Virus record (IMG/VR): IMGVR_UViG_3300047510_001668
Span: 1 to 64,000 of that record
Length of the DNA stretch: 64,000 bases
Origin: a virus
Direction: 5' to 3' (one strand)
Shown here in pieces: positions 13,818-36,957 of this stretch (the stretch's first letter is position 1; every line of letters begins with the position of its first letter). The position numbers and the translations under genes were made by a program. The notes under the pieces are model-generated. The model saw only the letters and a program-made list of their open reading frames with translations, did no database searches and was not told the DNA's origin.

Positions 13818-14624
13818 TTATTCTTCTGTTGAGTAAATGTATAGTGATGCGGTAACGTCCGATGTACCTACTGACCGATTTTCTAATTGGTAACCAATAA
13901 TTCCAGTTCCGATAGTATATTCGTTATCTGACCACGTATATGCTTCTAATGTTGGTACAAACTTATATGAGAAACTTGCACTATCAAACATAAAGTCTGC
14001 AATCAACTTAGAGTTGCCTACCGATGCCGTACCGAATGAACGAGTTTGTTCCGCTACAGGCACGTTATTTAGTGTGGTTGAATATAATCGTAATCTAGAC
14101 TCAGAAGTGGCACTACCACTTAATAAGAAGAAACTTTTCTTGGTTGTTATACTACCAGACACTCCATATCCTGTTGTTGGTATTGATGAACCAGAAATTT
14201 TAAGTATACTTCTATCGGTTAAACTATCACCGATATTTCCAAGACTGTATGCCTCGAAACTAACAATTGTATTTCCTAAAGACGAACTAGCGTGATACCA
14301 AGTATCTCCATTACCAAATGTATTACCGATAACAGGCGGGTCTAAATTTAATGTACTACCACTATCTAGTACCGCATCTAAAATCAATCCAACATTTTGA
14401 TTTAAAGTAAATGTAGTTGGACTTCTACTTGCATCAAGATTCACACTGGCACTATCAGAATACAACCTCAAACGTGTAGCTTTATTTGAGGTTACATTCA
14501 ATAGAATATACGACCCCCCGGGCGTTTGTACAGACCCACTAAGTGTGTTTGTAGCAAACGTTGGGAGGATTACTGTTTTACGAGAAAATATAGTACCTGC
14601 TGCGATTTGTTCTACTAAACCCAT
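13818..14624 (-). CDS. Virion structural protein with two internal homologous halves
   Basis: SYILLNVTSNKATRLRLYS...SRSP...GLILDAVL and SFFLLSGSATSESRLRLYS...TRSF...KLIADFMF. Confidence 0.6.
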   Translation of the reverse strand: MGLVEQIAAGTIFSRKTVILPTFATNTLSGSVQTPGGSYILLNVTSNKATRLRLYSDSASVNLDASRSPTTFTLNQNVGLILDAVLDSGSTLNLDPPVIGNTFGNGDTWYHASSSLGNTIVSFEAYSLGNIGDSLTDRSILKISGSSIPTTGYGVSGSITTKKSFFLLSGSATSESRLRLYSTTLNNVPVAEQTRSFGTASVGNSKLIADFMFDSASFSYKFVPTLEAYTWSDNEYTIGTGIIGYQLENRSVGTSDVTASLYIYSTEE

Positions 14625-14649: not shown

Positions 14650-14657
14650 TATAAATA
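14650..14657 (-). promoter_or_regulatory. Left-type putative late promoter motif (TATTTATA on the coding strand)
   Basis: 26 nt upstream of ATG 14624. Confidence 0.5.
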
Positions 14658-15937: not shown

Positions 15938-17755
15938 TTACCCTTCGTAGATATAATTTACATAATTTTCATCCGCACCAAACCGACTTGGCACACTAAG
16001 CGGGTCATTTTTATTAATCTGATATGGATAATCTTGTACGCCTAGTTCTTCAAATCGTTTACTAATACGTTCATTATAATGATGCATAATAGTTCTGACT
16101 CGACGTTGAATGTCTGCCCGAGACAAATCGTGCGTATTTTGTCCAGTATGATTATTATAAATAAACTGAATGTATCCCAATTTTGGTATCTTGACAAACT
16201 TAGTGTGTAAGAAGGTACGAACAATCAATTCATAATCATCTGCAATTGCTAAGTCTCTATTGTGACCACCTACTGCGAAATATACATCCCTTCTCCACAC
16301 TCGCACGTGATTTGGAACACCCACAATATGGCGAATGGTTTTTGGATTGATATTCGAGGTCACTGCTACATCCCATATAAGTCCTTTGTAGTTAACCTTT
16401 CTATATTTTCCATAACCTAAAGAAAACCCTTCACCATACGTTAACGAAGTCCAATCTTCTCGCACTTCTACACTATCATTATAAATGAATCCAGCATCTG
16501 GATATTTGTTAGCCGCTGCCATTACATCTGCTGAACAGTTTTCTGTGAGTAGGTCGTCGTGGTCTAATTCAGCTAACCATTGTCCTCTGGTTAAGCATGC
16601 TGCACGATATTTTGATTCACCGATAATACCTTTTGTTTTTTCTCTAAAGTCATACACTCTAACTCTGTTATCCATCGCTGCAATCTTCTCTGCGATTTTT
16701 AGAGTTTTACCTCCATCCGATGAATCATTGACCATTACCCATTCCCAATTTGGATAGGATTGTGCTTTCAACGATTCATATGTACGAAGTAATTTATTAC
16801 CCGTATTATATATCGGAGTGAAATATGAGATTAGTGTGTCCGTATTCTGTTCTAATATTTGGTTCATCGCACAATTATATGCGATTTCACCCACATACTC
16901 TTGTGTTGGTGGAAGTGTCATCCACCGCTTACGAACTTCCAAATTTGAATGGCATAAATTAGGGAAGTTGTTATAATCGTCGGATATTGTAATAATAGAA
17001 TCTGGTTTAAAATTAACCAGATATGATGTCAGATTCTCATCTGTTTTTGCATATTGTATGTCCAAACTAGTATCTTCGTATCCAAGATATTTTACACTTT
17101 CTAGCGTAGGTTCGTCTGGACCGATATATAATACCTTAGGTACTCGTGCTTTTTTTGCTGGTGTTAAGTAGTTGTAGAAACACAATACCTTGTGAATGAA
17201 ATGAAATTGGTCTGCGGATTGATTATATAACGGTTCAATAAACCGACCATCAGCATCATATCCGCCCTCATAGGTATGTAACTTGTATAATGATGTATGT
17301 AGAACATATTGAGCAGAATCGATATGACGTAACTTCATATGTTCTGGCCCAACTTTTCTAATTTCTAATCCAGTAAAATCGTTTCCACCTACATATTGTT
17401 CAAATACAAATCCTAATTTTATTGGATTTGATTGAATCGCAGTATATAGTTCGTTATAAAAGTCAGGATGCATAATGTTATCATCGTCCAATATGCACAC
17501 GAACCCATCATCAAATGTACTGATAATTTGACTTAATTGTGGGTATAAATAATCTGTGCCGTTACCTTTTACAAAATGTAACTTGGTACTGTCGTTCTGT
17601 AACTCATGTAATAGTTCTGCATCTATATCTTTAAGCGTAGTGGTATCAAAGATAAGATGCCATACTACATTAAACGGTGACGGAAAGACAGTCTGTTTAA
17701 TACGAAGTAAATTATGTAACCGAGTACAGCGAGTTAAAACATTTAGTGTTACCAT
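15938..17755 (-). CDS. Tandem two-domain GT-A (GT2-like) glycosyltransferase
   Basis: Domain 1 VLTRCTR...ILDDDNIMHPDF; domain 2 ISYFTPIYN...QSYPNWEWVMVNDSSD...LAELDHDDLL...DDYELIVR. Confidence 0.85.
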   Translation of the reverse strand: MVTLNVLTRCTRLHNLLRIKQTVFPSPFNVVWHLIFDTTTLKDIDAELLHELQNDSTKLHFVKGNGTDYLYPQLSQIISTFDDGFVCILDDDNIMHPDFYNELYTAIQSNPIKLGFVFEQYVGGNDFTGLEIRKVGPEHMKLRHIDSAQYVLHTSLYKLHTYEGGYDADGRFIEPLYNQSADQFHFIHKVLCFYNYLTPAKKARVPKVLYIGPDEPTLESVKYLGYEDTSLDIQYAKTDENLTSYLVNFKPDSIITISDDYNNFPNLCHSNLEVRKRWMTLPPTQEYVGEIAYNCAMNQILEQNTDTLISYFTPIYNTGNKLLRTYESLKAQSYPNWEWVMVNDSSDGGKTLKIAEKIAAMDNRVRVYDFREKTKGIIGESKYRAACLTRGQWLAELDHDDLLTENCSADVMAAANKYPDAGFIYNDSVEVREDWTSLTYGEGFSLGYGKYRKVNYKGLIWDVAVTSNINPKTIRHIVGVPNHVRVWRRDVYFAVGGHNRDLAIADDYELIVRTFLHTKFVKIPKLGYIQFIYNNHTGQNTHDLSRADIQRRVRTIMHHYNERISKRFEELGVQDYPYQINKNDPLSVPSRFGADENYVNYIYEG

Positions 17756-18854: not shown

Positions 18855-20933
18855 TTATTCGTTATTTGTCAAGTCCTTATTCTTTAATTTTTCAATTTCT
18901 AGGTCTAATTCCTTGATTGCTTGAATTAATAGGGCGACAATCTTTTCATAACGAACGGCCATATACCCATTTTCTCTGGTGATAACGACTTCAGGAATGA
19001 CTCTTTCAATTTCTTGTGCGATAACCCCGATATCATGTCCATAGTTTTCGTGAATACCTTCCATTGGTATCCAATCAAATTCATATCCACCTAGTTGACG
19101 AATCTTTTCAATTGCACTAGCGATAAATTGCTTATTCTTCTTTAAGCGTTCATCTGATGAGTAGTATGCTACGATATCATTCGTTGCTCGAATATTACCA
19201 GCCGTACCCGATGCAGCTGTGCCAACGCCTAAAGAGTTTACTTGGGCGTTAGAGTTTGTAGTAAATCCACCAGCTGCACCTTGTGGTCCGGTTGGACCGG
19301 TTGGTCCTTGACGGCCTTGTGGTCCGGTTGGGCCGGTTGGTCCGGCGCCACCAGTTGGACCGGTTGGTCCTTGATTGCCTTGTGGACCAGTTGGTCCTGT
19401 ACCTCCTGCCGATCCAGTTGGACCGGTTGGTCCTTGACGGCCTTGTGGGCCGTCTGGGCCTGTTGGGCCAGTACCACCAGCTGATCCGGTTGGGCCTTGT
19501 CGGCCTTGTGGTCCGTCTATACCAGTTGGACCTTGACGGCCTTGTGGGCCTGTTGGGCCAGTGCCACCTGTTGGGCCTGTTGGACCTTGGTTCCCCTGTG
19601 GTCCGGCTGGGCCTGTACCGCCGGTTGGTCCTTGATTACCTTGTGGTCCGGTTGGGCCTGTACCGCCGGTTGGTCCTTGATTGCCTTGTGGACCAGTGCC
19701 ACCTGTATTTCCGGTTGGTCCTTGATTGCCTTGTGGGCCTTGGCGCCCTTGTGGTCCCAAATTTCCTTGTGGTCCTGTTGGTCCTTGGTTACCTTGCGGT
19801 CCTTGGTTTCCTTGCGGTCCTTGATTACCTTGTGGGCCTTGATTACCTTGTGGGCCTTGATTGCCTTGTGGGCCTTGATTGCCTTGTGGGCCTTGATTGC
19901 CTTGTGGTCCGGTTGGTCCTTGGTTTCCTTGTGGGCCAGTTGGTCCTGTACTGCCTGTTGGACCTTGGTTACCTTGAGCGCCAGTTGGGCCTTGATTACC
20001 TTGCGGACCAATTACTCCTTGCGGTCCTGTTGGTCCTTGGTTACCTTGTGGACCTTGTGGAGTTAACGCAAATGCGGCGTTTTGTGCAAATGAAGCGGAG
20101 GTAGCGAAACTACTGGTACCAAATAATGACCCAGTAAATGATGCTGCGGTAATTGAACTGGTGACCACAAGACTTCCTGCTATGCCTACGGTAGTACCAT
20201 TATCACTGATTTGTGAATTTACAATGTGGTCACCACTAGTTCCTGCTTTTGGTACAAGGTTTGCTGTCAAGAATTGTTCACTACCCAACGTGCCAGTATT
20301 TTCTGGACCTGTAATCAATATACTACTGGTGTTGGATGTACCAGCGTGGACGTATAACCAGACGTTATGTAAACTATCCCAGAATAGTGACCCAGATTGA
20401 TTTGCTGAACCCGAGTCAAATATAGTTAATCCACCAAAGCGTAGTGCTTCTGTGGTATTTAAAATGATGTCGTTTGACCCAACGTCTAATTGAGATGAAC
20501 TAATATATTGAACAGATTGTGATGTTGCGGTCAACAATCCATTGATGGTTACATTTAATGGGAACGTAAAATTATTATTGGAAAATGTAGTTCCCGTGAT
20601 TTGACTAAGTTGAATTTGCGAAGAACCGCTGACAGTTCCAGTTGGTAATAGTGGGGTAACTTGTGCCGCTCCACTAACGATACCTGCTGGAATATTACCC
20701 AATCCAACATAATCAACTTGTCCAGAGGATGATACGGTACCAGTTGGTAAAAATGCGGTGACTTGACCGCTACTACTAACTGTATTCGTTGGTAATGCAG
20801 CGACAATTTGCGCAGAACTGGATACAGTTCCTGGTGTGGTTGAGGACGATACAGATGCTGCGAAGTTTTGAATAGCGGAAGTCGGGATACTGCCTGTTTT
20901 AATTAAGACACCGGATAGACGAGTTTCTGTCAC
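18855..20933 (-). CDS. Collagen-like tail fibre with C-terminal S74 intramolecular chaperone
   Basis: GTG start with SD GGAG. Long Gly-X-Y run; [11 protein letters not shown]...[10 protein letters not shown]...[18 protein letters not shown]. Confidence 0.9.
19272..20054 (-). repeat. Collagen Gly-X-Y repeat (87 triplets by coordinates), including an 18-bp GPQGNQ tandem near 19790-19910
   Basis: Uninterrupted [15 protein letters not shown] triplets in the translation; 783 nt = 87 x 9. Confidence 0.95.
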
Positions 20934-20959: not shown

Positions 20960-21000
20960 TATAAATAGAGTACGTTTAAATTATGACCTTGATATAAATA
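20960..21000 (-). promoter_or_regulatory. Two left-type putative late promoter motifs (TATTTATA on the coding strand)
   Basis: Copies at 20960-20967 and 20993-21000; the first is 27 nt upstream of the collagen fibre start. Confidence 0.5.
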
Positions 21001-21069: not shown

Positions 21070-21501
21070 TTAGACTAACTTAAGTTCGGTTGGTGGTTCG
21101 TCTACCACTAGTGGGTATAGAGCCGAAAGCATTGCTGGTTCTAATTCCATTGAATCTGGGAAATCAGACAACTTGAAACTGACGTTGGTGACTTCTACGG
21201 TTTGCTTTAACAATTCATCCATTTCTTGGTTGACCGTTGCAATCTTGTCATTTGGAATGGTGACAGTATTTGGAATTGTATTTCCTTCGTTATCCGTTGC
21301 TTCAACAAAGTTTCCCAAGTGGTCACGGGTTGCATACTTGGTACGAATGTCCTTCAATGGTTCATCCACTGCCTTAGCAAATGGTTCGAGAGTACGAACT
21401 GCGGTGGTGACCTTCCACGCTAACTTAATTGGGAGCTTTTGCTGACCAATAGAATTTAATGCTTGCATTGCATTCAAAACCTGAACGTTCGTTAACTGCA
21501 T
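21070..21501 (-). CDS. Hypothetical helical protein (possibly DUF1617-like)
   Basis: 143-aa ORF with SD GGAGG, its own promoter and its own terminator. Confidence 0.75.
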   Translation of the reverse strand: MQLTNVQVLNAMQALNSIGQQKLPIKLAWKVTTAVRTLEPFAKAVDEPLKDIRTKYATRDHLGNFVEATDNEGNTIPNTVTIPNDKIATVNQEMDELLKQTVEVTNVSFKLSDFPDSMELEPAMLSALYPLVVDEPPTELKLV

Positions 21502-21612: not shown

Positions 21613-21987
21613 TTATGGAGCGGATCCTGATACCGCTGGGTTTGGTCCTCCAAGATTTTGTCCCCACGGAGTTTCCGTTACGTCAGACCACGGGTCATTC
21701 TTCTTGGTGATTTGCTTGATGATTTGTTCTTGTACGTGGTCAAGATAATTTTCTACAACGATACCTTGAATCCAACTTAATACTTGTTCTTTGGTTAAAT
21801 CTTCGTATGCGGTAAAACTACCACTTGCGGGTAATGGAAGTGGCGTTGCGCCTTGGAATTGACCTGTGGTACCATTTTCATCGGTACCTGTGCATGTCCA
21901 ACGTACATGAACGATGACGTTATTCATGCCTTCAAGAGTTGGTGCCTTCCGAATATTAGTGATGTCCCATGTATATGTTATTGCCAT
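21613..21987 (-). CDS. Small fibre-associated protein
   Basis: MAITYTWDIT...VHVRWTCTGTD...FTAYEDLTKEQVLSWI; SD AGGAG; directly follows an S74 fibre gene. Confidence 0.75.
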   Translation of the reverse strand: MAITYTWDITNIRKAPTLEGMNNVIVHVRWTCTGTDENGTTGQFQGATPLPLPASGSFTAYEDLTKEQVLSWIQGIVVENYLDHVQEQIIKQITKKNDPWSDVTETPWGQNLGGPNPAVSGSAP

Positions 21988-22025
21988 TGTGTTCTCCTAC
22001 CAGTTAATCTGGTTCTGTTTGAGAG

Positions 22026-25000
22026 TTATGAGTTATTTATACGATTTTCCAGCTCTTCAATTTTTGCTTGTTGTGTTGCAATTTGTTGTTTCAATATTTC
22101 AATGTCATCGGTTTTCTTCAAAATGTTTCTTAATGCTGCGTGATAGTAAGGAATCATTTGCACATAATCCACAGTAAACTGTTCATTTGCAGGAGATGTA
22201 TGTCCATAAATATCAGTTTCGGCGGGTAATCCTTCCTTTGGTACAGCTGCCACAAGATGTCGGAATCCATTACGAATAACATCTTGAGCAATAAACCCTG
22301 TTTTCAATTCTCTGTCTAGTAATCCTTCATTTCCTATCTTTGCATTCTTCCAACGATAATGCACAGGATCAATATCACGTATGAAACTTAACCCTTCATT
22401 TTCAGAAATGATATTCACAACATCTTTTAAACGTCTATCAGAGTGGGTCATGTATTCTGCACAAATAATACGACTTCCATCATCAACATAAATGGCAAGT
22501 CCTACGCCTTGAGCACCGTTACCATAAGAACCATATCCAACGCCGGATGAAAGATAATAATATGATGCAGGGGAAGTGAATCCTATATTTCCAAGAACGG
22601 TGAGCATTGCGTAATTAGTACCATTATTTCCTATATGTGCTCTGTACATTCTAGATACATTGTTTGGGTCTGTATACCAAGCGGTGTCATTTTGGTCATA
22701 GAAGATAGGGGAACGTGAACTTCCTCCATGTATGGTATATCCATATGGGAATTCCGTATAACTTCCGTTCCAATACCAGATCCATCCACGACTGTTATCA
22801 TGCACCCCTACGTTGTCACCAGTAGTGGACATGAACACGTGACGAGAACCGATACCCCAACCACTCCATCCGTTACGTCCTGAACCGTATGTGGTGGCGT
22901 TTCCATAACTGTTACCAGCCGAATGTGCCCACCATGCTCCGTACCCATATGCTTGAGAATACCAACCAGTATCGGAGTGGTTTCTGAACCATCCGTAATT
23001 GTATATTTCGTTGGGGTCTATGCGACCCATGCGGCTGAAGTCGTTTGGATCCACATAATATCCGGTGTTGTTATAATCATAGAATATTGTTCCTCTCACA
23101 TCACTTGAAGCAACAACATTGTAAGACATTGATGACCCGAATCCACCATTAATTAACACCAATAATCCGTGGCTACTCATGTTTCCTGCCACACCACCTG
23201 CATTGGGATGTGACCATGCTATACCATACAAATTACCTGTGCTTGTGCCGTCAATAGGCAACTTATATGAGTTACCCATAGCGAATACGCCTTGATATCG
23301 TGTAGAAGCATATGCACCTACAATGGAACATCCGTAATTGTAATCTAAATAAAGATTTTCATTACCATCAATTCTGATACCACCGTTTGCCACGACATAG
23401 GATAAACGAGCGGTACCAGCGGGGTCTGTGTAATATGCTGTATTATTACTATCATAGAAAATGGGTGCCCTTAATGATCCCGCGGCTTCCAAATAAACAT
23501 CCGTATAGATGTAAGATGCGTTAAAGCCCATTTTTCTAGAACCCGCATACATTAAACTAACATCATGTGAACTATAACTACCTATAAAAACTGAACTGGG
23601 TGTATGAACATACATACCAGCTTCAATACCGGGTGTTCTAGCGTGTAAAACAAACTTTACGTGCGGTCCGTTACTAAATCTTATTTGTGTGCCCCATCCC
23701 CCTGGATCAGACCAATCATCTCCACTATCACCAACATAGAGGTTTCTTAAACGAGAACCTCCTGCTGGATTTAAATAAAACGCGGTATCATTATTATCAT
23801 AGAAAACGGGTGACCGCATTGATCCCACTGCCCAAAGATTACCAGAGGTATCACCATAGGTTACGTTTGAACCACTACCATTTCTAAAAATAAATTCTGA
23901 TCCATATTGGAAATACCAGTTGCTACTATGATATTGAATTTTTCCAGCAAATTCACCATCCCATGTTGCTGAATCTGCTCGCCAACTACCTACGGTACGT
24001 ATTGCTGTAGTCGAAGTTGGGTCTATGTAATATCCTGTATTATTACTATCATAGAAGATGGGGGATCTTACATCAGACCCCACATATAAAATATTTTCTA
24101 CACGAACATTACTATCACCTCTAGCAACAGAAAATACTTCGCTACCTTCATAATACTTAACAGAATTATTATAGAAACGTATGCCACCGTAAGTAGCGGC
24201 CGCACCTATTTTGATGCCTGTGTGCCAATCTAAAGTTAACTTAGTGTAATTACCATTATAATTTTCTAAAGTAGTGCCAATAGAATATCCTTGAATATCA
24301 CTTTCCCCATGATTATTGAAGAACAATGTACCCTGTACTGCTGTGGTATATACTTGTCCTGATGTGTATCCTAAATCAAGAGATTGTAATTCACTTTTAC
24401 TATTAGGGTTAACATAAAATGTGGTGTCATTACTATCATAGAAGATGGGAGCACGGAAATCACCACTGGTGGTGTAGGTGCCTGTGCCACCTGTTTTGCT
24501 ACTCAACCCATCAAAAGACAATCCTGTGATGTATCCAGAATTGTTTGTGAACTGGGATATGTTCATGCTGGTTAATGCACCTGCCGTGGTGGCAGTTGTG
24601 GCATTGCCACTTAATGCCGCTGTAATAGTGCCAGCTGTGAAGTTACCTGAACCATCACGCGCCACGATGGTTGATGCTGTGTTGGCTGATGTGGCGTTGC
24701 TGGTGACAGTGAATGTTGCAGCTCCAGACCCATTGTAGGTTTGTGACCCTGACAATCCTGTGCCAGACACGCCCATTGTTAATGTTGCTAAATTACTGCC
24801 TAGTGCCACACCTGAAATGGTACTATTAGCCAATTTGTTGTTGGCAATACTGCCTGCCAACATGGTGTTGGTCACAGTGCCTGTGTCTGTGGTGTACACA
24901 CCGTTTGTGACAGTTGAGGCATTGCCTGACAAAGCGCCAACGAATGTACCTGCCACGAAATTTTGCGACCCCACGGTCCATCTATCATTGGTTTCATCCC

Positions 25001-26135
25001 AAAGCAATGTGACATTGCTGGATGTGCCACGTTCCACTTCAATGCCTGCATCTTGTGACGGCGTGCCAGTTTCATTGCTGTTCAACACCACGGTGTTGTC
25101 AGCCAAATTGATGGTTTCTGTATTGATGGTGGTGGTGGTGCCTGATACTGTGAGATTGCCTGACACCACAACATCATTGAAGGTCACATTGTCTGAGGTA
25201 CCGACAGCTTGTCCAATGGCAACTTGTCCGGATGAGATGGTGACACCTGTGCCTGCCGAGAAATGTGCTCGAACTTCAGAAGCACTAGGTCCTGTATATG
25301 TAAACACACCTGTGCCTGAATCATATGTGAAACTACCATCACCGCCAGCATCAGTGGCACTCATGGCACCACGAGCACGTGTGTTGGTGAACCAGAGGTT
25401 TACAGGTGAAGCATCTTCAGCAACATCATCTGTGACGAGAGTTCTAGTACCACCCAATGATACTGATGTGCCATTGATGGTGATGCTACTATTTGTCAAT
25501 GAACTATTACCAATATTTGAAATGGTGTTGTCACCACCACTAATGGTCTTGTTGGTGAGTGTTTGTGCTCCCGTCAATGTGGCCACGGTGTTGTCAATGT
25601 CCAATGTTACCGTGTTGTTGGTGACGGTGGATGACAATCCTGTACCGCCTGCCACAGTCAAGGTATCGGAAATCAATGACACACTATCTGTACCCGTGTC
25701 ACCTGCAATGTTTATGGAAGAACTGACTGATGCTGTGGTGGCTGAGGTGATGCGACCATATGTGTCAATGGTCAACACAGGAACGGCTGTTGATGAGCCA
25801 TAGCTGCTGGCTGTGACACCAGATGCAGCCAATGCCACAGTGACAGCAGCAGATTCACCTGACCCTGTGGCGGTGATGCCTGTGCCTGCCGCCACAGAAG
25901 CCACATAATCACCTGTGGTGTCAGTTCCCAAGGTGATGCTGTTTCCAGACACCGTGGCAGTTAATGTAATATCATGAGCACCGCTGATACTAGCACTTCC
26001 GGATACATCACCTGATAGTGTCAGAGTTCGAGCTGTTTCCCAGGCACTAGCTGTGGCAGCATTCGTGGTGATGGTGCCTGTAGCTGACACATGGGAGCCT
26101 AATTTTGAAAACTTTCTACTAATGGATTCAGTCAT
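22026..26135 (-). CDS. Long tail fibre 1 with S74 chaperone domain
   Basis: Thr/Ser/Gly-rich shaft, six RxPIFYD repeats, C-terminal THSDRRLKD...TGFIAQDV...VDYVQMIPY plus coiled coil. Confidence 0.9.
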   Translation of the reverse strand: MTESISRKFSKLGSHVSATGTITTNAATASAWETARTLTLSGDVSGSASISGAHDITLTATVSGNSITLGTDTTGDYVASVAAGTGITATGSGESAAVTVALAASGVTASSYGSSTAVPVLTIDTYGRITSATTASVSSSINIAGDTGTDSVSLISDTLTVAGGTGLSSTVTNNTVTLDIDNTVATLTGAQTLTNKTISGGDNTISNIGNSSLTNSSITINGTSVSLGGTRTLVTDDVAEDASPVNLWFTNTRARGAMSATDAGGDGSFTYDSGTGVFTYTGPSASEVRAHFSAGTGVTISSGQVAIGQAVGTSDNVTFNDVVVSGNLTVSGTTTTINTETINLADNTVVLNSNETGTPSQDAGIEVERGTSSNVTLLWDETNDRWTVGSQNFVAGTFVGALSGNASTVTNGVYTTDTGTVTNTMLAGSIANNKLANSTISGVALGSNLATLTMGVSGTGLSGSQTYNGSGAATFTVTSNATSANTASTIVARDGSGNFTAGTITAALSGNATTATTAGALTSMNISQFTNNSGYITGLSFDGLSSKTGGTGTYTTSGDFRAPIFYDSNDTTFYVNPNSKSELQSLDLGYTSGQVYTTAVQGTLFFNNHGESDIQGYSIGTTLENYNGNYTKLTLDWHTGIKIGAAATYGGIRFYNNSVKYYEGSEVFSVARGDSNVRVENILYVGSDVRSPIFYDSNNTGYYIDPTSTTAIRTVGSWRADSATWDGEFAGKIQYHSSNWYFQYGSEFIFRNGSGSNVTYGDTSGNLWAVGSMRSPVFYDNNDTAFYLNPAGGSRLRNLYVGDSGDDWSDPGGWGTQIRFSNGPHVKFVLHARTPGIEAGMYVHTPSSVFIGSYSSHDVSLMYAGSRKMGFNASYIYTDVYLEAAGSLRAPIFYDSNNTAYYTDPAGTARLSYVVANGGIRIDGNENLYLDYNYGCSIVGAYASTRYQGVFAMGNSYKLPIDGTSTGNLYGIAWSHPNAGGVAGNMSSHGLLVLINGGFGSSMSYNVVASSDVRGTIFYDYNNTGYYVDPNDFSRMGRIDPNEIYNYGWFRNHSDTGWYSQAYGYGAWWAHSAGNSYGNATTYGSGRNGWSGWGIGSRHVFMSTTGDNVGVHDNSRGWIWYWNGSYTEFPYGYTIHGGSSRSPIFYDQNDTAWYTDPNNVSRMYRAHIGNNGTNYAMLTVLGNIGFTSPASYYYLSSGVGYGSYGNGAQGVGLAIYVDDGSRIICAEYMTHSDRRLKDVVNIISENEGLSFIRDIDPVHYRWKNAKIGNEGLLDRELKTGFIAQDVIRNGFRHLVAAVPKEGLPAETDIYGHTSPANEQFTVDYVQMIPYYHAALRNILKKTDDIEILKQQIATQQAKIEELENRINNS
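22681..24465 (-). repeat. Six dispersed RxP(I/V)FYDxNxT repeats bounding fibre modules
   Basis: FRAPIFYDSNDT, VRSPIFYDSNNT, MRSPVFYDNNDT, LRAPIFYDSNNT, VRGTIFYDYNNT, SRSPIFYDQNDT; plus-strand DNA core near ttactatcatagaa. Confidence 0.85.
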
Positions 26136-26165: not shown

Positions 26166-26173
26166 TATTTATT
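26166..26173 (-). promoter_or_regulatory. T4-like late promoter variant (AATAAATA)
   Basis: 31 nt upstream of the fibre 1 start. Confidence 0.5.
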
Positions 26174-26408
26174 GAGGTTCTGTATGATATGTAGCTTTGG
26201 CATTTGGGTCAGGTATTTTTACAAAACCAATATCAATTTTATTTACCGTGGAATCAATGATGCTTTGTAAAAATGTTTCATCCACATGTCCTGTGTCTGT
26301 TCGAGGTACAGGAAATGTTCGTGTGATGCAATGTGATGCTTCGTTAGTAAACGTCACCGTGATGGTTTCATCACTAGCGGTGATGTCAGGATATGTTACT
26401 GTAATCAT
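26169..26408 (-). CDS. Small fibre-associated hypothetical protein
   Basis: 79-aa ORF with ATGA overlap to the fibre 2 stop. Confidence 0.65.
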   Translation of the reverse strand: MITVTYPDITASDETITVTFTNEASHCITRTFPVPRTDTGHVDETFLQSIIDSTVNKIDIGFVKIPDPNAKATYHTEPQ

Positions 26409-29400
26409 TCTATACCTCGTGATTTCTTTAATTCATCAATTTGTTTTTGTTGTTCCTTGATGGCTTCAATCAATACAGCCACGAAGTTACCATAGGACAC
26501 TGCCTTTCTCATTTCTCCTGTCGTGGTGGGGACTTCCAACACCAATTCAGGAAGCACTTCTTCCACATCTTGTGCAATCAACCCTACACCTGCTTTGTCA
26601 TTTTCAATCAACTTGTAGGTGACACCTTGAAGTCGTTGAACTAGTTCCAATCCATTTTCAATGTTCTTGATGTCCTTCTTGATTCTTCTGTCTGAGTAGG
26701 CAGTGACGTTGCCTGCAAATACACCATTGCCGCTTCTGTCAATGGACAACACTGTGGTACCCCATCCACCATTTCTCCATCCGTGGTCACGATTCACACG
26801 GAAATATTCCGCGTCATTGTAACCGAACCCTATGGTATAGGTGTTGTTATTTTGACCTTGAGAAAACAGAATGGAAGGTTTATCGTATCCTGCACCTGAA
26901 TCAATTCTGAATTCTGCCACAACACCCCAAGAATGGTCACCATGAGTGTTTACAAACATTGCAGTTGCTGCATTTCCTGCTGCACTTGATGTATTTCTAA
27001 ACAGATATACGTGATTGGTGCCACTGAATGATCCAATAAAGTGAAATCTATGTAATGGTTCACTATTGGCGCCATATGCACCCCAATCAGCGTCCCATCC
27101 AAATCCCATGCGTCCGTTGGTACGAACTGTCATGAAGGTGGCACCTGCATATCCGGCAATACCATTATGAGGATTGTAGTCGGTGTTGCCGAAATCTCCA
27201 CTGGAGAATCCCATGTCAAATTTTGTACCATCACCACTAGTTCCAATCAGCCATTGACGAGCGCCTAGTCCATCATGAGCAAATTGAATGGTGGGACCAT
27301 GAGATGTATTACCTGTGGCAGTGTGGTCCAGTACCAGTGCAGGATACTGCCCACGAAGATACATGGTGGGGCGAGCATTTGCATCAACCAAGGTGTAAGG
27401 GAAACTAGTTTGACCTGACCCTATCACGACACGCGAACCATTTGCATCCGATACGTGACGCATCGTGGTGGTGTTATTATGAACGTGGTCTATAAATTTA
27501 CCAGATTCAGTTGACACGCTAATACTATTATCACCGTAAATACCACCACGATTCCACGCTGCACCTAAACGAATTTCACCGGAGTAGGATTCTGGGCTAC
27601 TAATACTAATATTTCTTGAACTGTTTATCAATGGAATGGTGCTTGTACTAGTGCCTACATGATATCCATCTACTAAGTCTGCATCCAATCCAGAACCCGC
27701 ACCATCATTCGTAGAGGTCCAGGCATAACTTCCTACGTTACCCGCGTGAAGAACTTGATTTCCACCCTGTTGAAGAGCAACTAATGAATTGATAGCACTA
27801 CCATTCAACGTCATCCAGGCACCATCATAACCAGTACCAATCCATGCCCATGTAAGAGCGTCATTTCCACCAAGTGCACCAAATCCAGCTCGGGTTGTTC
27901 CGGCACTTCCTTGAAAATATGTTCCCATTGACCATCCGCCGACCTCACCTCGCATGGCAATATATCCACCGCCAGTATTTAATTCAATAGAACGCCCACC
28001 CGTCAACGTACCGCCGCCTATAGGTAGGGCGTAAGTACTTACGTTACCAGCATGCAATACAGTATTTCCGCTCCAAGTAATTCCTGAACGGGTGATACGA
28101 GCCACTTCTGTATATGTGGCAGGTTGAGAAGATTTGAAGAACCATCCTGTTGTATCATTGGCTTCAGCATATTCAACAAGGCACATTTGATGTCCTGCGG
28201 TATATGTTGGGGATCCATTACCTGCCGTAGCTCCTGTGATATTGGCACGCATGGTTATCAAATGATTGGTGTTTGGATACCCACGAATTAATCCATAAGT
28301 GTTTACACCACCCGTGTTCAATACTAAATCTGCGCCTGTTATTGTAAGTCCACCAGTAAGTGTGCCGCCACTCAACGGAAGAGCGTAAGAAGAATAGTTA
28401 CTAGTTGTGAGTAATCCTAGCTGACTGATAACATGAGCTGGCGTTGATTTGCGATTATAATTATCAGAACTACTATTGGTCCAGAAAGCTGCAATAGTTG
28501 GATTTTCTGAATTGCTGGATGATTGATTGAAATGTACTCCAAAGAAATATCTGCCTGTGATATCAGCTCCACTGTCACGTAATACAATTGTGTTTGCGGT
28601 TGCTGCTGTAGCAGAACTATAACCATCCAGCAAATCAGCATCCAACCCAGATCCTGCTCCATCATTTCCAGCTGTCCAAATGGCGTTTCCGTTGTATCGA
28701 AAAGCTCCATTGCCATCACCTGAAGCAACATCTAAATTGCCTCCTGTGGCACGAACACTCCAAGAGCGTGTTCCTGATTGGTCAAATTGTAATAAATTAG
28801 CGCCAAACTGTAAATTACCTGTAAGTGAACCTCCACTGATAGGTAAGGCATCTGTGATACCAAACCCTGACAACGTAGTAGGCTTACTTGTAATACCTGA
28901 CCATGCAACATTTGTTGCTGTTGATGCGTTGCCTGATAATGCCGCTGTAATTGTTCCTGCACTAAAATTACCTGAACCATCACGTGCTACTATTGTAGAT
29001 GCTGTATTGGCACTTGTGGCATTACTTGTGATGGTATACGTGGCATTCTCACCTGAGCCTGAGACAGACAATCCTGTACCTGATACTGCAACAGTTGCAA
29101 CATAATCACCTGTAGTATCAGTTCCCAGAGCAACACTATCAGCAGCAATCGTAGTAGAAATACTAATGTTCCCTGACCCATCAAATGCGGCTGAGGTGCC
29201 TGTGACATCACCTGACAGGGTTAATGTTCTACCTGTTGCCCAAGCAGATGCCGTGCTGGCATTGCCTGTTAAACTTCCGATGAATGATGAGGCTTGAACT
29301 GGAGCCAAGGCAAATGACGCATGGGTGATGTCAATGTAAGCAGAAGCATCAGGTTCCGGAGTGTACTGATGAAAGAACTTCCATCTTCCATCAGATTCAT

Positions 29401-30439
29401 CACGGAACAATCCAGCATGTCGGTATGTGCCATCATTGTAATTACCTGCAAATCCCAAGTCAGGATGAGTCACCGTTGATCCACTATTCAAGTAAATCAT
29501 GTTATCTTCCACGGCAAGATTCGTGGCGTTGATGGTCACGGTGGTGCCTGATACTGTTAGATTACCATCAATTTGCAAGTTGCCTGTGACATTGACATCA
29601 TCATCCATCACCGTGGTGCCACCTGTGGAATCCAGGGTCAAGTTGCCTGCACTGGTGTCAATCTCACCGGCGGCAGTGACGCCTACTCTAATATTATCTG
29701 CTGTGACACCGGCAAATGTCACATTGTCAGTTGTAGCAACAGCCTGTCCAATTGAAACCTGACCTGAAGAAATTGCAACACCCGTACCTGCTGAGAAGTG
29801 AGCGCGAACTTCAGATGCTGAAGGGCCTGTGTATGTAATAACTCCTGTGCCTGAGGTATATGATAGGCTACCATCACCACCGGCATCCGTGACGCTGATG
29901 GCGGCTCTGGCACGACCATCCGTGTACCAAAGATTTACAGGTGACCCATCTTCAGCAATATCATCTGTGACCAGAGTTCTTGTGCCACCCAAGGCAGTTG
30001 AAGTGCCGTTGATGGTGATGCTGCTATTGGTCAATGATGCATTGGCGATGTTACTTAAGGTGTTGTTTGCTCCACTAATTGTTTTGTTGGTGAGAGTTTG
30101 TTCACCTGTTAATGTTGCAACCGTGTTATCAATAGAAACAGTCACGGCAGCAGTTTCTGTGCCAGACCCGGTGACGGTGATACCTGACCCAGCTGATATT
30201 GTGGCCACGTAATTGCCTGTGGTGTCAGTACCCAGGGCTACGGTGTTGCCTGACACGGTGGCAGTCAGCGTGACATTTTCACTTCCATCAATACTCACGT
30301 TCCCTGATAAATCACCACCCAACGTGATGGTTCGAGCATTTTGCCAAGTGGATGCTGTGGCGGCATTTGTAGTGATGCTACCTGTACCACTGACATTTTG
30401 CGCTAATCGTCCCAGTTTTCTATTGAATGATTCCGTCAT
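26405..30439 (-). CDS. Long tail fibre 2 with S74 chaperone domain
   Basis: N-terminus paralogous to fibre 1 (MTESFNRKLG vs MTESISRKFS); C-terminal AYSDRRIKKD...GVGLIAQDVEEVLPELV...AVSYGNFVAVLIEAIKE. Confidence 0.9.
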   Translation of the reverse strand: MTESFNRKLGRLAQNVSGTGSITTNAATASTWQNARTITLGGDLSGNVSIDGSENVTLTATVSGNTVALGTDTTGNYVATISAGSGITVTGSGTETAAVTVSIDNTVATLTGEQTLTNKTISGANNTLSNIANASLTNSSITINGTSTALGGTRTLVTDDIAEDGSPVNLWYTDGRARAAISVTDAGGDGSLSYTSGTGVITYTGPSASEVRAHFSAGTGVAISSGQVSIGQAVATTDNVTFAGVTADNIRVGVTAAGEIDTSAGNLTLDSTGGTTVMDDDVNVTGNLQIDGNLTVSGTTVTINATNLAVEDNMIYLNSGSTVTHPDLGFAGNYNDGTYRHAGLFRDESDGRWKFFHQYTPEPDASAYIDITHASFALAPVQASSFIGSLTGNASTASAWATGRTLTLSGDVTGTSAAFDGSGNISISTTIAADSVALGTDTTGDYVATVAVSGTGLSVSGSGENATYTITSNATSANTASTIVARDGSGNFSAGTITAALSGNASTATNVAWSGITSKPTTLSGFGITDALPISGGSLTGNLQFGANLLQFDQSGTRSWSVRATGGNLDVASGDGNGAFRYNGNAIWTAGNDGAGSGLDADLLDGYSSATAATANTIVLRDSGADITGRYFFGVHFNQSSSNSENPTIAAFWTNSSSDNYNRKSTPAHVISQLGLLTTSNYSSYALPLSGGTLTGGLTITGADLVLNTGGVNTYGLIRGYPNTNHLITMRANITGATAGNGSPTYTAGHQMCLVEYAEANDTTGWFFKSSQPATYTEVARITRSGITWSGNTVLHAGNVSTYALPIGGGTLTGGRSIELNTGGGYIAMRGEVGGWSMGTYFQGSAGTTRAGFGALGGNDALTWAWIGTGYDGAWMTLNGSAINSLVALQQGGNQVLHAGNVGSYAWTSTNDGAGSGLDADLVDGYHVGTSTSTIPLINSSRNISISSPESYSGEIRLGAAWNRGGIYGDNSISVSTESGKFIDHVHNNTTTMRHVSDANGSRVVIGSGQTSFPYTLVDANARPTMYLRGQYPALVLDHTATGNTSHGPTIQFAHDGLGARQWLIGTSGDGTKFDMGFSSGDFGNTDYNPHNGIAGYAGATFMTVRTNGRMGFGWDADWGAYGANSEPLHRFHFIGSFSGTNHVYLFRNTSSAAGNAATAMFVNTHGDHSWGVVAEFRIDSGAGYDKPSILFSQGQNNNTYTIGFGYNDAEYFRVNRDHGWRNGGWGTTVLSIDRSGNGVFAGNVTAYSDRRIKKDIKNIENGLELVQRLQGVTYKLIENDKAGVGLIAQDVEEVLPELVLEVPTTTGEMRKAVSYGNFVAVLIEAIKEQQKQIDELKKSRGIE

Positions 30440-30917: not shown

Positions 30918-33900
30918 TTAATTGTTCTCTAATTTGTTGATACGAGTTGTTAACACTTCATTTTCTTTCTTCAATTCCTTGATGGCTTCAATTAACAGAC
31001 CCACCATGTTTCCATATGCCACATGTTTGATACCTGAGGAATTTTCTTCCACAACTTCAGGAAGAACTTGTTCCACTTCTTGTGCAATCACACCTGCATG
31101 ACGTTTTGTTGTGTCTCCTGTGTCATTGCGTGTGTACGTGATGCCACGAATGTGTTGAACTTTATCCAGAGCATTTTCAATGTTCATGATGTTTTCTTTT
31201 AATCGAACATCAGAATATGCCGTGATGTTGCCTGATGCTGTGATGCCACTGCTATTGAATGTCACGGTCCAGGTGCTGCCATAACCCACGTTATCAAATT
31301 GGAAGGCGCTGGCGTTGATGGTATGATTACCGCCACTTGTATAATGACGAGATCCCCAACTATTAGCATTTCCAACTGTTCCACCCATGTAAAGGTAATT
31401 GCCCCCATTGCCAATATGCACATATCCATTCACGCTCAAGGCAACATCAGGCGCATGACTTCCTCCAATACCCACGTTGTTCAAGAAACGATGATTTCCT
31501 CGGTGGGACACTTTGATGGCTTTCCATCCAGAGATGTACGAGGTATTTTGTCCTCCATAATTGAACAAAGCTTGTGGTGTCCAGTATTTGGTACCCGACA
31601 CGAATTGTCCTGTGGAACTACCGAACCCTCCAATATACCCTACATATCGTGTCCATGAAGTTCCAGGATAGGATCCTAACATCACCCAATAGCCATAGGA
31701 CCCAGGATTTCCTCCAAGACTACTAAAGCTTGCATTGTAATCTATGGACCCCATGTAATGTCCATTGGTACCAGCCACGTCCTTGATCCAACATTCCATC
31801 ATGAACACATCATCTTGATCCACAGGAATGTATGGAAACCCTGAATTGTATACACCACCCACATATACAGGACCTGAAAGTTGTATGGCATATCCTCCTG
31901 GAGCTGTTGAATCAGACACCCAAGATACACTACTTGAACCAAAATATTCTTGCAGTTCAGATTGACTCCATGTGGGGTCAATTTCAAATACGGTTTCACC
32001 TGGTGTGTAATGTCCTAGAGGATAATTCTGGTCACTAGACACTCTAACATTGGTGCGTCGTACTCCTCCATAAAAATCTACTGTATCTCCAAAATATGCG
32101 CCGCCGGTGCCTAACACATAAAATGTTCTTGTTCCTGAAGCATTTAAACCTGTAAAATTAAAATATGCATTGTTAGTAACTCGAGCACCGAAGGCATTGT
32201 ATCCTGATAGATAAGAACTCACCGCACCCGAATCAACACTTCCACCTACATTAAGTGTTCCTGCTGTTGTAAGTTCCATTCTTAATGTGGCAGATCCATT
32301 AGTATAAAACTTAAGACTATTACTTGTTTCTGATGCAATTGCTAAATTGTTAGATGACCCAGATCCTGTCCAATTTTTTTCGTATCCAATAAATGCAGAC
32401 CTAGTTCCGCCGGTTTCATCAACTACCAATCCAAGCATTCTAGCATAGCCAGTAATATGAAGTGCTTGTGATGGACTTGATGTACCTACACCTAAACTAC
32501 CTCGAATGTATACATTACCACTGTCATAGATAATCATGTTGTTGTAAGCATCATTACTACTATTGAATCTATAACCAGTGGCACTATCAGCAGTGAAATA
32601 TGCGGTGGAGTTTAAACGAACAACGCCAGTTAGTGTCCCTCCGCTTAGAGGTAACGCATATGAACCATAGTTGCCTGAATGAAGTGCAGTATATGCAGTG
32701 CCGCCTCCATAGGTACCACTATAAATGTAAAAGACACCACTTTCATGATAATACTTCCAGCCGTAGGTGTGATTGTAAAATCCAGTAGTATTTCCAGTAG
32801 TCATCCATCCTGCGTTACCTACACCGGTGGAAAACATGGCTCCCCAATATCCGTTTCTACTTCCATCCACCATGAATGACCCATAGGTTGTGGCACTAGG
32901 GTACATATGAGTCATGGATCCTGAACTTGGGAAATATAATCCGTATGCTGTTCCACCATGGAAATGAGCCCAGGTGTAAAAATTCACATAGGAACTTGCT
33001 GTTGTGCTAAAACGACTACCATTAACTTCAGTGGAAGTTCCTCCGTTAGCCGGAGCAGAACCTGCAGTTCCTGTCACATTGATGCTCCAAGTACCTGAAG
33101 CACCTGTTCCTGTCAATGTTGGTGAATATGAGTTGTAATTGCCTGCATGAAGGATAATATTTCCACTTGGACCTGTGAGGCTACCTCCTTGGGGAGCAAT
33201 ATTAATGGTAGACCCATTGATATTAAGAATTCCATATGATGTCGTATCGCGGTTGTATGCGATAAGGTATCCTTGTCCACCGCTTATACCGGCTTCAGTC
33301 GCAAAACCAGTCGCAGCATTGCCGCTGTACCACCCAGTGAATCTTCCTTGCCCGGTGGTGCTGATGTCGCTAGTAAACGCACGCTGCGATGTTGTTGTGG
33401 CATTTCCACTTAATGCTGCCGTGATGGTGCCTGCCGTGAAGTTGCCAGAGCTATCCCGAGCTACAATTGTACTTGCTGTATTAGCACTTGTGGCATTGCT
33501 TGTGACCGTGAATGTGACAGCAGATGATCCGTTATAGGTTTGTGACCCAGATAATCCCGTGCCCGATACAGCCAATGTTAGTGTATCTAAATTTGTTCCT
33601 AGTGCTTTACCTGAAATGGTACTGTTGGCCAACTTGTTGTTGGCGATACTTCCTGCCAGCATGGCGTTAGTAACTGTTCCCGTATCTGTTGTATATACAC
33701 CATTAGTAACAGTTGACGCATTGCCACTCAATGTGGCTGTAATTGTTCCAGCACTGAAGTTGCCACTGGCGTCACGTGCCACAACTTTTGATGCTGTATT
33801 GGCACTGGTGGCATCCACCGCCAATGTTAAGGCAGCTCCTTCGGACCCACCGTTGCCGCCTGTGATGTAACTACCGTTCGTGATGCTGGCAACGTAATTT

Positions 33901-35600: not shown

Positions 35601-36731
35601 TCATGCGTTGATTGCCGTGGCAATCACTTTATAGGTTGTAACTGCATTGGTGGGTGTTGTCAGTAAACGAAGATTGCCACCAGAAACATCAGCCGTGAAC
35701 GTGGCCAAACTTCCTGATGTAGTAACGGTGCCATATTCTGTTATGAATGTATCTGTACCATCATGTATCACCATGACTTCTGTGACATGATAACTGGTAC
35801 TTGAAGTAACTTGAATGTGATATTTCACACTACGAAATGTTGAGGCAGAAATGCTATCCAACACTTGATCCACAGTGGTTGTGGAAGTTGTCAATGTCAC
35901 ACTTCTCACACCACCATTGGCAAATGTCACGCCAGCAAATGTAGGTGTAGCACCTGTGTGTATGTTTTGTGGGAGACTCAGGGTGACATCGGCAGAAACG
36001 GCACCTGACCCAACAACAGTGATTTGATTAGCGGTGCCGGTTATTGTGGACACATAGCTATCATTGGTAAGATTTAAATTCTTGTATGATAGAAGTTCCA
36101 CAACATCATTCAATGCCGCACCTGTATCAAGCACAAGACTTGTACCGTTGGTAGCGGTGTAATCATCTTCTGTCAATTTCACACCGTTCAAGAACACAGT
36201 GATGTGTCCTGCCTCATAATCCAATGTTTGAGCATTATCATCAGCACCTGTGAACGTGGTTTGTGATGCCGTGGCTGTGTATTTGTAGGTCTTGAATTGT
36301 GCAGTAATTTCATTCCAAATGTTCACAGTCTTGAATGAAACAATTTCAACCAGTTCACCCACATCGGCAGCAGTATCTAGAACAACACTTGTGCCATTGG
36401 TTGCTGTGTAATCTGATTCAGAAATTTTAATACCGTTGATGAACACGGTGAGATATCCAGGGGCGTAATCCAGGGTGTTGGCGTTATCATCAGCACCTGA
36501 GAACGTGGTTCGTGCAGACCCAGCAACAGTATAGGCAAATATTTCAAACTCTGAATTGGTGATGATACCACCTGTACTTCCTGATTGAAAGTAATCAATA
36601 GAGTTTGTATTTGTTCTATAGTATAATCTACCGTCTGTGTAATTCAGCGCCAGTTCGCCATAATCCAAATCACCGGTGGTGGGCGTTTTCGCCGCCACGG
36701 ATGACCGTTTGAGAATAACTTTATTTCCCAT
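35601..36731 (-). CDS. Fibre-base/structural protein with Mtd-N-like N-terminus and two repeated beta modules
   Basis: KVILKRSSVAAKTPTTGDLDYGELALNYTDGRLY; two copies of QTTFxGADDNxxTLDYxxGxxxVFxNGxKxxExDYTATNGTSxVLD; C-terminal FRSVKYHIQV...EVMVIHDGT domain. Confidence 0.75.
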   Translation of the reverse strand: MGNKVILKRSSVAAKTPTTGDLDYGELALNYTDGRLYYRTNTNSIDYFQSGSTGGIITNSEFEIFAYTVAGSARTTFSGADDNANTLDYAPGYLTVFINGIKISESDYTATNGTSVVLDTAADVGELVEIVSFKTVNIWNEITAQFKTYKYTATASQTTFTGADDNAQTLDYEAGHITVFLNGVKLTEDDYTATNGTSLVLDTGAALNDVVELLSYKNLNLTNDSYVSTITGTANQITVVGSGAVSADVTLSLPQNIHTGATPTFAGVTFANGGVRSVTLTTSTTTVDQVLDSISASTFRSVKYHIQVTSSTSYHVTEVMVIHDGTDTFITEYGTVTTSGSLATFTADVSGGNLRLLTTPTNAVTTYKVIATAINA

Positions 36732-36783
36732 GTACAAAGCCCCTAAAAAGGATGAAACTAGATATAAAAATACCTAGTATGAG

Positions 36784-36817
36784 AAGAACTAGAGAGGTTG
36801 TTTCCCCTCTAGTTCTT
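36784..36817 (-). terminator. Probable terminator hairpin
   Basis: Minus strand AAGAACTAGAGGGG-AAACAA-CCTCTCTAGTTCTT: 14-bp stem with one G-U pair. Confidence 0.6.
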
Positions 36818-36947: not shown

Positions 36948-36957
36948 TGTTCACCTA

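Follow-up and report, generated by a model that had tools for sequence, protein, structure and literature searches.

Contig structure and origin

The window analyzed here comprises positions 1 to 64,000 of a 177,878-bp viral contig and carries all its genes on the minus strand, the strand to which the features below refer. This contig is very probably an in-silico chimera of two phages joined via a 170-nt stretch identical in both, accompanied by a separate, natural mosaic within the gene for the tail fibre protein fibre 1. On the sequence comparisons presented below, its origin is an assembler mis-join of two T4-like phages, located in a small DUF7936 gene immediately downstream of fibre 1 and not in a fibre repeat. 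Positions 21,719–177,878, a span of 156,160 nt in which 127 nt of overlap are counted, would represent one complete, circularly closed genome (hereinafter right-type). It would belong to a T4-like phage akin to Melnitz, HTVC008M, and the cyanomyoviruses that encodes a single gp55 late sigma factor and has late promoters of the form TATAAATA. Positions 1–21,718 would be a fragment of another T4-like lineage of lower GC, related to Flavobacterium phage immuto and using a different promoter-like motif, (A/C)TATTTATA(A/T) (hereinafter left-type); this fragment reads as foreign to the genome that forms the rest of the contig.

The mis-join is bounded by the mismatch-free limits of two parental contigs, which together define the shared 170-nt interval at 21,719–21,888. 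The right-type parent (L203) matches the window without a mismatch as far down as 21,719, and the left-type parent (L181) shows no mismatch from 21,888 downwards (100% identity from 21,888 to 12,604) and 50 in 22,134–21,889. Separate contigs of the left phage match the left block at 100% identity as far as 21,888, beyond which identity drops to ~80%. An exact copy of the last 127 nt of the contig (177,752–177,878) lies within this interval at 21,719–21,845; in the terminal-repeat alignment 127/127 positions are identical, after which the two copies diverge (174/184 overall). Such an end repeat is what an assembly graph leaves where it branches at k = 127, the largest k in a metaSPAdes-type run. 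Of the Logan contigs, L204 and L205 begin at 177,749. L182 and L183 match the left block at 100% identity and stop at 21,830 and 21,748, respectively. The assembler would have circled the first genome once, re-met the shared 127-mer and exited on the branch of the other phage. The case resembles other chimeric metagenome contigs that arise in de Bruijn graphs by a join through a shared k-mer: the 127-nt overlap at the end recurs at an internal site, each parent is found separately, and one of them closes to a circle of exactly the remaining length.

The mis-join interval falls in an ORF of 124 aa at 21,613–21,987 (PF25590, E = 5.7e-21). As printed, this ORF appears to be a hybrid, with its N-terminal part coming from a right-type DUF7936 gene (gene X) and its C-terminal part from the left-type gene; both parental versions are on record, as 123 aa in L203 and L229 and as 124 aa in L181. 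BLASTP comparisons of the left against the right proteins returned matches limited to the fibre C-termini and two small genes, and this result directed attention to the contig ends. A direct joining of base 1 to base 177,878 was rejected despite compatible reading frames: the gene at the left end needs three further codons (LNF, then stop) in its homologues, and the ORF at the right end is the DUF7936 gene X. In Megablast searches of GenBank phages, neither half had a match.

Separate assemblies of the right-type phage

The right-type phage was recovered without the left block from another sample. Contig Ga0485299_0000012 (JGI 3300047564; 156,160 bp) is 100% identical to window positions 31,609–21,719 and continues from 21,719 into the right end of our contig, with zero mismatches to 177,878–167,277. 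Its length is that of the expected circle (177,878 − 21,718 = 156,160), its record ends at genome position 102,386, matching the prediction for an indel-free circle, and by arithmetic it presumably possesses a 127-nt terminal overlap. The genes along it run fibre 3, fibre 2, fibre 1 (1369 aa), DUF7936 (123 aa) and DUF7936 (121 aa), the last being followed by a 161-aa gene and then gp13–gp20. A second contig (3300043427; 156,692 bp) displays the same closure from fibre 1 through X to gp13 and likewise lacks the left block; in that sample the left-type piece is present as a separate 2.9-kb contig ending at 21,830, and the two phages co-occur in at least one other sample of the series. Five IMG/VR relatives (L101–L105) also pass from fibre 1 through DUF7936 to gp13 without the left block. 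Our contig is probably independent of the 156-kb contigs, as a single assembly should not hold both.

These assemblies bear directly on the alternative that the contig is a natural recombinant, namely a real genome of ~178 kb (or larger) in which an inserted 22-kb left-type block, with DUF7936 copies on either side, separates fibre 1 from gp13. Such an exchange has some precedent in these phages: ~15 genes are 80–89% identical at the amino acid level between the left and right lineages, compared with ~30% for core genes, and a fibre-tip/DUF7936 cassette is common to both. Moreover, the CheckV completeness of the 177.9-kb contig is 99%, which naively favors a 178-kb genome, and the left end of the contig lies just three codons before the end of a gene rather than mid-gene, which also counts against a chimera. 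Nevertheless, we consider a natural origin of the whole contig very improbable, since the same strain, at 100% identity, was assembled independently twice and each time closes the circle without the block, and the synteny of the block in all relatives runs into left-type replication genes and never back to right-type sequence. Further, the promoter-like motif of the block differs from the TATAAATA used in gp55-type late transcription, only one gp55-type sigma factor is encoded in the contig, and an exact look-up of the hybrid 124-aa DUF7936 product found no record in other assemblies, which weakly favors the same conclusion. The first-pass annotation had offered an inter-lineage recombinant as one of two readings of this region; the idea is right in a narrow sense, because the compositional switch at 24.44 kb is a genuine mosaic inside the fibre (see below), but it does not extend to the contig as a whole.

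The gene content of the right part is that expected of a T4-like phage. It encodes T4 core virion genes in T4 order (gp13, 14, 15, 17, 18, 19, 20, 22, and 23, and gp5, 6, 26, 48, 2, and 32). The capsid protein is 69% identical to that of the Methylophilales phage Melnitz and 68% to that of the Pelagibacter phage HTVC008M. A gp55-type sigma factor gene at 158,473–158,985 (phrog_234, E = 4.2e-59), present as a single copy in the contig, codes for a protein 42% identical to T4 gp55. As for late transcription by gp55 from a TATAAATA −10 element, known from T4, cyanomyoviruses, HTVC008M, and Melnitz, the right part displays nothing unusual. The full contig has just one gp55, portal, terminase, and capsid gene but two gp26-type hub genes, and a divPolA1 gene in addition to a T4-type PolB.

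The main value of these observations lies in quality control, in that a public viral contig with a CheckV completeness of 99% consists of a 156-kb genome plus 21.7 kb of a foreign phage. Inferences that unite the first 21.7 kb with the rest, such as two polymerases, two hub modules, or dual promoter use, need to be split between the phages, as does a collagen-fibre modification cluster adjoining a glycosylation operon. The remaining real biology is ordinary: a probable lateral swapping of distal fibre modules by phages that occur together, and a modest lead on a lineage-specific promoter motif.

The left-type fragment

The fragment at 1–21,718 is collinear with the IMG/VR contigs G002, G004, G005, G006, and G007 (GC 0.37–0.41) and appears to derive from an Immutovirus-like T4-like lineage. 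Its genes include those for a divPolA1-like protein, a hub protein, a gp26-like protein, an SNF2 helicase, a glycosyltransferase/oxygenase, and a collagen-fibre protein. The five collinear contigs encode a PolB, sheath, capsid, portal, and terminase of their own, with just 27–44% amino acid identity to those of the right part. The left-type genomes run on into their PolB past the PolA-like end of the block; at the other end, towards the fibre, they part from the contig with fibre, sheath, capsid, portal, and terminase genes of their own. Immutovirus (Flavobacterium phage vB_FspM_immuto) and related divPolA1-encoding myophages have genomes of 155–190 kb (PMC11348598). The kinship of the left block to immuto itself is distant (30–45% amino acid identity), its close relatives all being uncultured freshwater contigs. 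Within the fragment, matches to immuto were seen for the gp26-like protein (45%), the product of 5773–7530 (30%), and DUF7936 (39%), with no other structural-gene matches, and the capsid of the left-type relative G005 is 55.5% identical to that of immuto.

The gene at 454–1725, of the divergent family-A polymerase-like divPolA1 type, had been taken in the first-pass annotation as a sign of a second lineage on the ground that T4-like phages normally use a family-B polymerase. The gene is real, with a weak profile match (PF00476, 34.9 bits); its product is 86–89% identical to its counterparts in G002, G004, and G005 and 30% identical over 99% of its length to immuto 67–1296. However, the argument from it fails: in immuto-like phages divPolA1 is accessory and exists alongside a regular polymerase (PMC11348598), and the left-type relatives G002 and G005–G007 possess a family-B polymerase with 32–33% identity to gp43. 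The regular polymerase gene of the left lineage lies outside the 21.7-kb fragment.

A similar fate befell the proposal that the baseplate genes of the two parts are complementary rather than redundant, at least for the one family tested. The left part codes for a gp26-like baseplate hub protein at 9628–10,383 (phrog_150, E = 4.5e-21; PF12322, E = 2.8e-16), and the right-type gp26 at 71,796–72,485 (phrog_150, E = 6.7e-48) makes it redundant.

Promoter-like motifs of the two phages

The reversal of promoter motif polarity first noted across this region is borne out: TATTTATA occurs on the coding strand in the left part, and the T4-type TATAAATA takes its place from 22 kb to the end of the contig. 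Because the contig is chimeric, this flip is a difference between two phages and not a property of one genome. On the plus strand of the window, TATAAATA (equivalent to TATTTATA on the coding strand) is found at 10,418, 14,650, 16,156, 17,544, 20,960, and 20,993 and nowhere else, while on the minus strand it is found at 22,034, 39,000, 39,012, 46,976, and 61,163, with AATAAATA at 26,166 and 30,905. The 11 TATAAATA sites in the window exceed the 3.07 ± 1.79 expected, a count reached in 0/100 shuffles. The left-hand motifs lie 34, 25, and 26 nt from the start codon and the right-hand ones 30, 25, 25, and 23 nt.

The same partition holds over the full contig, where all 22 sites in the T4-type orientation (TATTTATA on the plus strand) fall within 22,034–176,733, and those in the opposite orientation comprise six sites below 21 kb plus two others, at 70,235 (before a plus-strand gene) and 93,535. 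In the right part, TATAAATA is present in 12/172 upstream regions and TATTTATA in 0/172, and many of the 22 sites lie on the coding strand 23–46 nt before late genes. Two examples at the fibre 1 gene are the T4-type TATAAATA at 22,034–22,041, which belongs to the right-type genome, lies 46 nt before the DUF7936 gene, and is present in L203 (100% identical there), and AATAAATA at 26,166–26,173, 30 nt before fibre 1 itself.

The individual left-type motifs are conserved in the left lineage. The gp26-like gene is preceded at a distance of 34 nt by the motif at 10,418–10,425 (GGATATTTATATAGG on the coding strand), which is retained before the orthologous gene in G002, G004, and G005. That at 14,650–14,657 (AGATATTTATACTAG), 25 nt before the gene at 13,818–14,624, recurs in G001, G002, G004, and G005. 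Of the pair at 20,960–20,967 and 20,993–21,000, situated before the collagen-fibre gene (18,855–20,933), both copies are conserved in G005. Conservation across the lineage thus covers the positions before the gp26-like, 268-aa, and collagen-fibre genes. The ratio of TATTTATA to TATAAATA on the coding strand is 20:0 in G004, 16:1 in G005, 14:4 in G006, and 17:8 in G007; it is 30:15 in immuto, which shows the same bias toward TATTTATA before genes (21 vs 7).

These patterns raise the possibility, which we advance tentatively, that the Immutovirus-like branch has a late promoter of its own, (A/C)TATTTATA(A/T), read by a sigma factor so divergent from gp55 that it is barely detectable with profiles, and that fibre-tip/DUF7936 cassettes would still be traded with phages of the other type. 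The putative element corresponds to the TATAAATA of T4 with the central AA replaced by TT. BLAST, protein, and profile searches detected no gp55 in the left-type contigs; these negatives are no proof of absence, because immuto has a weakly matching gp55-like ORF (E = 0.008) with homologues 36–38% identical in G004, G005, and G006. By inspection, the left motif did not fit the Bacteroidota −7 box TAnnTTTG, and no mention of TATTTATA as a late promoter of phages emerged from a literature search. The left-type relative G005 displays TATAAATA before its DUF7936 gene, suggesting that the cassette may travel with a promoter of the other dialect.

A natural mosaic in fibre 1

Fibre 1 (1369 aa; 22,026–26,135) is a genuine right-type gene, 100% identical in L203. 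It comprises a native N-terminal shaft (75–78% nucleotide identity to its counterparts in fibres 2 and 3), a distal half in which RxP(I/V)FYD repeats occur, and a terminal Peptidase_S74 chaperone (aa 1232–1287). Composition and codon usage change at a module boundary at 24,400–24,462, which contains the first RAPIFYDSN motif. A third-order Markov log-likelihood analysis placed the change-point at 24,440 (aa 563), in agreement with the switch in codon style that the first-pass annotation had perceived by eye at the first RxPIFYD repeat, and the first tetranucleotide principal component (32% of variance) separates 1–24 kb from the other 154 kb of the contig. GC3 drops from 0.44 in the N-terminal half to 0.28 in the distal half, to be compared with gene means of 0.47 in the right part and 0.29 in the left.

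That annotation had offered, as its other reading, a mis-assembly through this fibre repeat; a mis-assembly is supported but not this location, the join being in the DUF7936 gene at 21,719–21,888. A join through the RxPIFYD repeats at ~24.4 kb could have exploited a 21-nt exact match common to repeats 1 and 2 and would account for the change-point at 24,440, yet we give it practically no credence, as it is refuted by independent contigs: L203 is 100% identical to the window from 31,609 to 21,719, straight over 24,440, and L101 and L102 are 94–97% identical across the same point and then carry right-type genes again. The switch therefore reads as a natural fibre mosaic and not as an assembly artefact, because the sequence through 24.44 kb is matched at 100% identity by the independent 156,160-bp contig. 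The same break is found in L101, L102, L104, and L105, flanked on both sides by right-type sequence, and the architecture across it is unchanged in L104 and L105, which are ~70–75% identical there, as in the two closer relatives.

It is conceivable, if unlikely, that the switch reflects nothing more than the amino acid composition of the distal fibre domains, which are rich in N, Y, D, and S, rather than a foreign origin. Its persistence in L104 and L105, with fibre regions just ~70–75% identical in nucleotide sequence, is in keeping with this explanation and implies that any transfer is old. Against it, the fall in GC3 is accompanied by a preference, in Gly, Ala, Tyr, and Asn codons, for the synonyms used in left-type genes, so that amino acid content is no sufficient cause, and homologous repeat domains are present in left-type relatives. 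Under the preferred explanation of a mosaic, a presumably receptor-binding distal half with the codon usage of the left lineage would have been joined to the native shaft at the first RxPIFYD motif. Low GC3 is likewise seen in the distal parts of fibres 2 and 3, and distal fibre modules were presumably gained by lateral exchange.

Mosaics of this kind are familiar from the T-even gp37/gp38 adhesins, in which distal tail-fibre domains are swapped modularly at short conserved motifs. Fibre 1 likewise combines a conserved shaft with a foreign-looking distal half, the boundary coinciding with a short repeated motif (RxPIFYDxN); the position of this boundary suggests recombination at the motif. Judging from its alignment, L101 has additional sequence at the first motif, which may be a further repeat unit.

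Assembly join between two phages

The linear IMG/VR contig measures 177,878 bp, of which the window covers the first 64 kb, and in both almost all genes lie on the minus strand. The first-pass annotation had described a late-promoter motif that flips polarity between the left and right of the window, and this proved exact, with the sites in opposite orientation on each side. The plus strand carries TATAAATA (read as TATTTATA along the coding strand) at 10418, 14650, 16156, 17544, 20960, and 20993, and elsewhere in the contig at only two sites (70,235, before a plus-strand gene, and 93,535). All 22 copies in the T4 orientation fall within 22,034-176,733. The distance from motif to start codon is 25-34 nt for the left-hand genes, against 23-30 nt for those on the right. 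Two left-type motifs (16156-16163 and 17544-17551) lie within a glycosyltransferase ORF (15938-17755) and not ahead of a start codon; they could act as internal promoters or have arisen by chance. The proposal of two 'dialects' within one genome fell away: this is an assembly artefact, the motif types belonging to two joined phages.

Using exact-protein look-ups, we located JGI contig Ga0485299_0000012 (3300047564; 156,160 bp), in which fibres 3, 2, and 1 are followed by two DUF7936 genes (123 and 121 aa), a 161-aa gene, and gp13 to gp20. It matches our contig with zero mismatches at window 31,609-21,719 and likewise at 177,878-167,277, the two alignments sharing a 127-mer: positions 21,719-21,845 are an exact copy of the contig's last 127 nt, with divergence beyond. 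Its length equals 177,878 - 21,718, and its end falls at genome position 102,386, exactly as predicted for an indel-free circle. BLASTP found paralogues of the small genes following fibre 1 (21613-21987 and 21070-21501) at the extreme right contig end, just upstream of gp13. The same link from fibre 1 to gp13 was recovered in a second contig (3300043427, 156,692 bp), in a sample where the left-type sequence is on a separate 2.9-kb contig ending at 21,830; fibre 1, DUF7936, and gp13 also follow one another in that order in five further IMG/VR relatives (L101-L105), and the Logan contigs of the right-type strain begin at 177,749. From the other side, the left-type parent contig shows no difference from the window between 21,888 and 12,604, but 50 mismatches in 22,134-21,889. 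Read together, identity to the right-type contig down to 21,719 and to the left-type parent from 21,888 place the join within 21,719-21,888, a stretch of 170 nt that the two phages share without a mismatch. In the contig, the DUF7936 ORF is a hybrid, and exact-protein look-up found its product in no other assembly.

Our conclusion is that the assembly passed once around a circular 156-kb genome and then left it along the branch of another phage; this exit would have occurred in a de Bruijn graph of k = 127, a value used as an assembler setting. The earlier suspicion of mis-assembly was thus right as to the chimera but not as to its place, which is not the fibre repeat, the right-type contig being 100% identical across 24,440. 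Accordingly, 1-21.7 kb and the rest of the contig are different phages, and findings on each are to be kept apart. CheckV scored the chimeric 177.9-kb contig as 99% complete.

Composition switch within the tail fibres

The codon-style switch reported near the first RxPIFYD repeat was reproduced: a likelihood ratio from third-order Markov models, trained on 1-18 kb versus 30-178 kb, put the change-point at 24,440, where fibre 1 (1369-aa ORF, 22026-26135) has its first RAPIFYDSN motif, and tetranucleotide PC1 set the first 24 kb apart from all other sequence. GC3 falls from 0.44 in the fibre 1 shaft to 0.28 in its distal half (gene means: right, 0.47 +/- 0.08; left, 0.29 +/- 0.08), where Gly, Ala, Tyr, and Asn are encoded with the same synonymous preferences as in left-type genes. 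This switch, lying in sequence shared intact with the right-type contig, is real biology and not an artefact: in L101, L102, L104, and L105, right-type sequence flanks the left-like stretch on both sides. Fibres 2 (26405-30439) and 3 (30918-35588) have a right-type N-terminal shaft in common with fibre 1 (75-78% nucleotide identity) and distal parts of low GC3 (0.21-0.35), so that all three look like a native shaft with a foreign-style tip. Both the fibre-end/DUF7936 cassette and homologues of the RxPIFYD domains are present in left-type relatives; most likely, distal fibre modules were laterally exchanged between two lineages meeting in the same hosts. Some 15 other genes show 80-89% identity from one lineage to the other. 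Such an exchange would be old, being common to relatives just ~70-75% identical in the fibre; the mosaic is genuine but ordinary. In the near-identical relative L101, positions 1-1099 align to window 24901-24028 as two blocks that overlap at window 24,400-24,452 with ~170 unaligned nt between them; from this layout, L101 may have an additional unit bounded by RxPIFYD at the first motif, so that the number of fibre repeats would vary.

The left-type lineage and its promoter motif

Many uncultured contigs are related to the left 21.7 kb, among them four large ones (G001, G002, G004, G005) and two that are near-complete (G006, G007; 164-167 kb), these six having a GC of 0.37-0.41. G002, G004, and G005, and more loosely G006 and G007, are collinear with the left block and run past its left end, G001 being excepted as its contig stops at the helicase. 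The relatives encode a PolB, sheath, capsid, protease, portal, and terminase of their own, which are just 27-44% identical to the right-type genes, and in G005 the capsid shares 55.5% identity with that of Flavobacterium phage vB_FspM_immuto. The 'Pol A' gene of the left block matches the start of the immuto genome and corresponds to divPolA1, a divergent accessory polymerase of immuto-like phages, which encode a regular polymerase besides (PMC11348598). These core genes, the immuto-like capsid, and divPolA1 show the left block to be a fragment of a complete and separate T4-like lineage.

In these relatives, TATTTATA on the coding strand is commoner than TATAAATA (20:0 in G004, 16:1 in G005, 14:4 in G006, and 17:8 in G007) and precedes the same orthologous genes across contigs. 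Likewise, in the cultured phage immuto it is found in 21 upstream regions, against seven with TATAAATA, with the consensus (A/C)TATTTATA(A/T). Searches of the left-type contigs did not detect gp55. A 240-aa immuto ORF (MW353176.1, 78106-78828) gives a weak hit (E = 0.008) to the late-sigma profile of gp55, and G004, G005, and G006 encode homologues of it (36-38% identity); the ORF is a candidate for the late sigma factor, in diverged form, of the TATTTATA lineage. We infer that TATTTATA could be the late promoter read by this gp55-like product.

The right-type genome and gene flow between the lineages

The right part is a standard T4-like genome, with structural genes gp13, 14, 15, 17, 18, 19, 20, and 22 at 163-177 kb, baseplate and nearby genes (gp5, gp6, gp48, gp26, gp2, gp32) at 62-75 kb, a family-B polymerase at 137-140 kb, and a single gp55 at 158.4-159.0 kb. 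Its capsid is 69% identical to that of Methylophilales phage Melnitz and 68% to that of Pelagibacter phage HTVC008M. Beyond the fibres, ~15 right-type genes (99-107 kb, 118.1-120.3 kb, and 128.2-128.8 kb) are 66-89% identical in amino acids to G004/G005 genes, compared with ~30% for core genes. This contrast points to genes having passed extensively between the two T4-like lineages, which probably have hosts in common. A 125-aa right-type gene at ~103.7-104.1 kb (L211, 307-684) has a faint recorded match to Por_Secre_tail, a type IX secretion sorting domain, which would hint at a Bacteroidota host for this phage too. In G005 (36561-37010), an exact TATAAATA, the sole one among its upstream regions, precedes the DUF7936 gene, and its fibre end and the adjoining intergenic sequence are nearly identical to window 21,988-22,074; the fibre-end/DUF7936 cassette seems to travel with a promoter of the other lineage.
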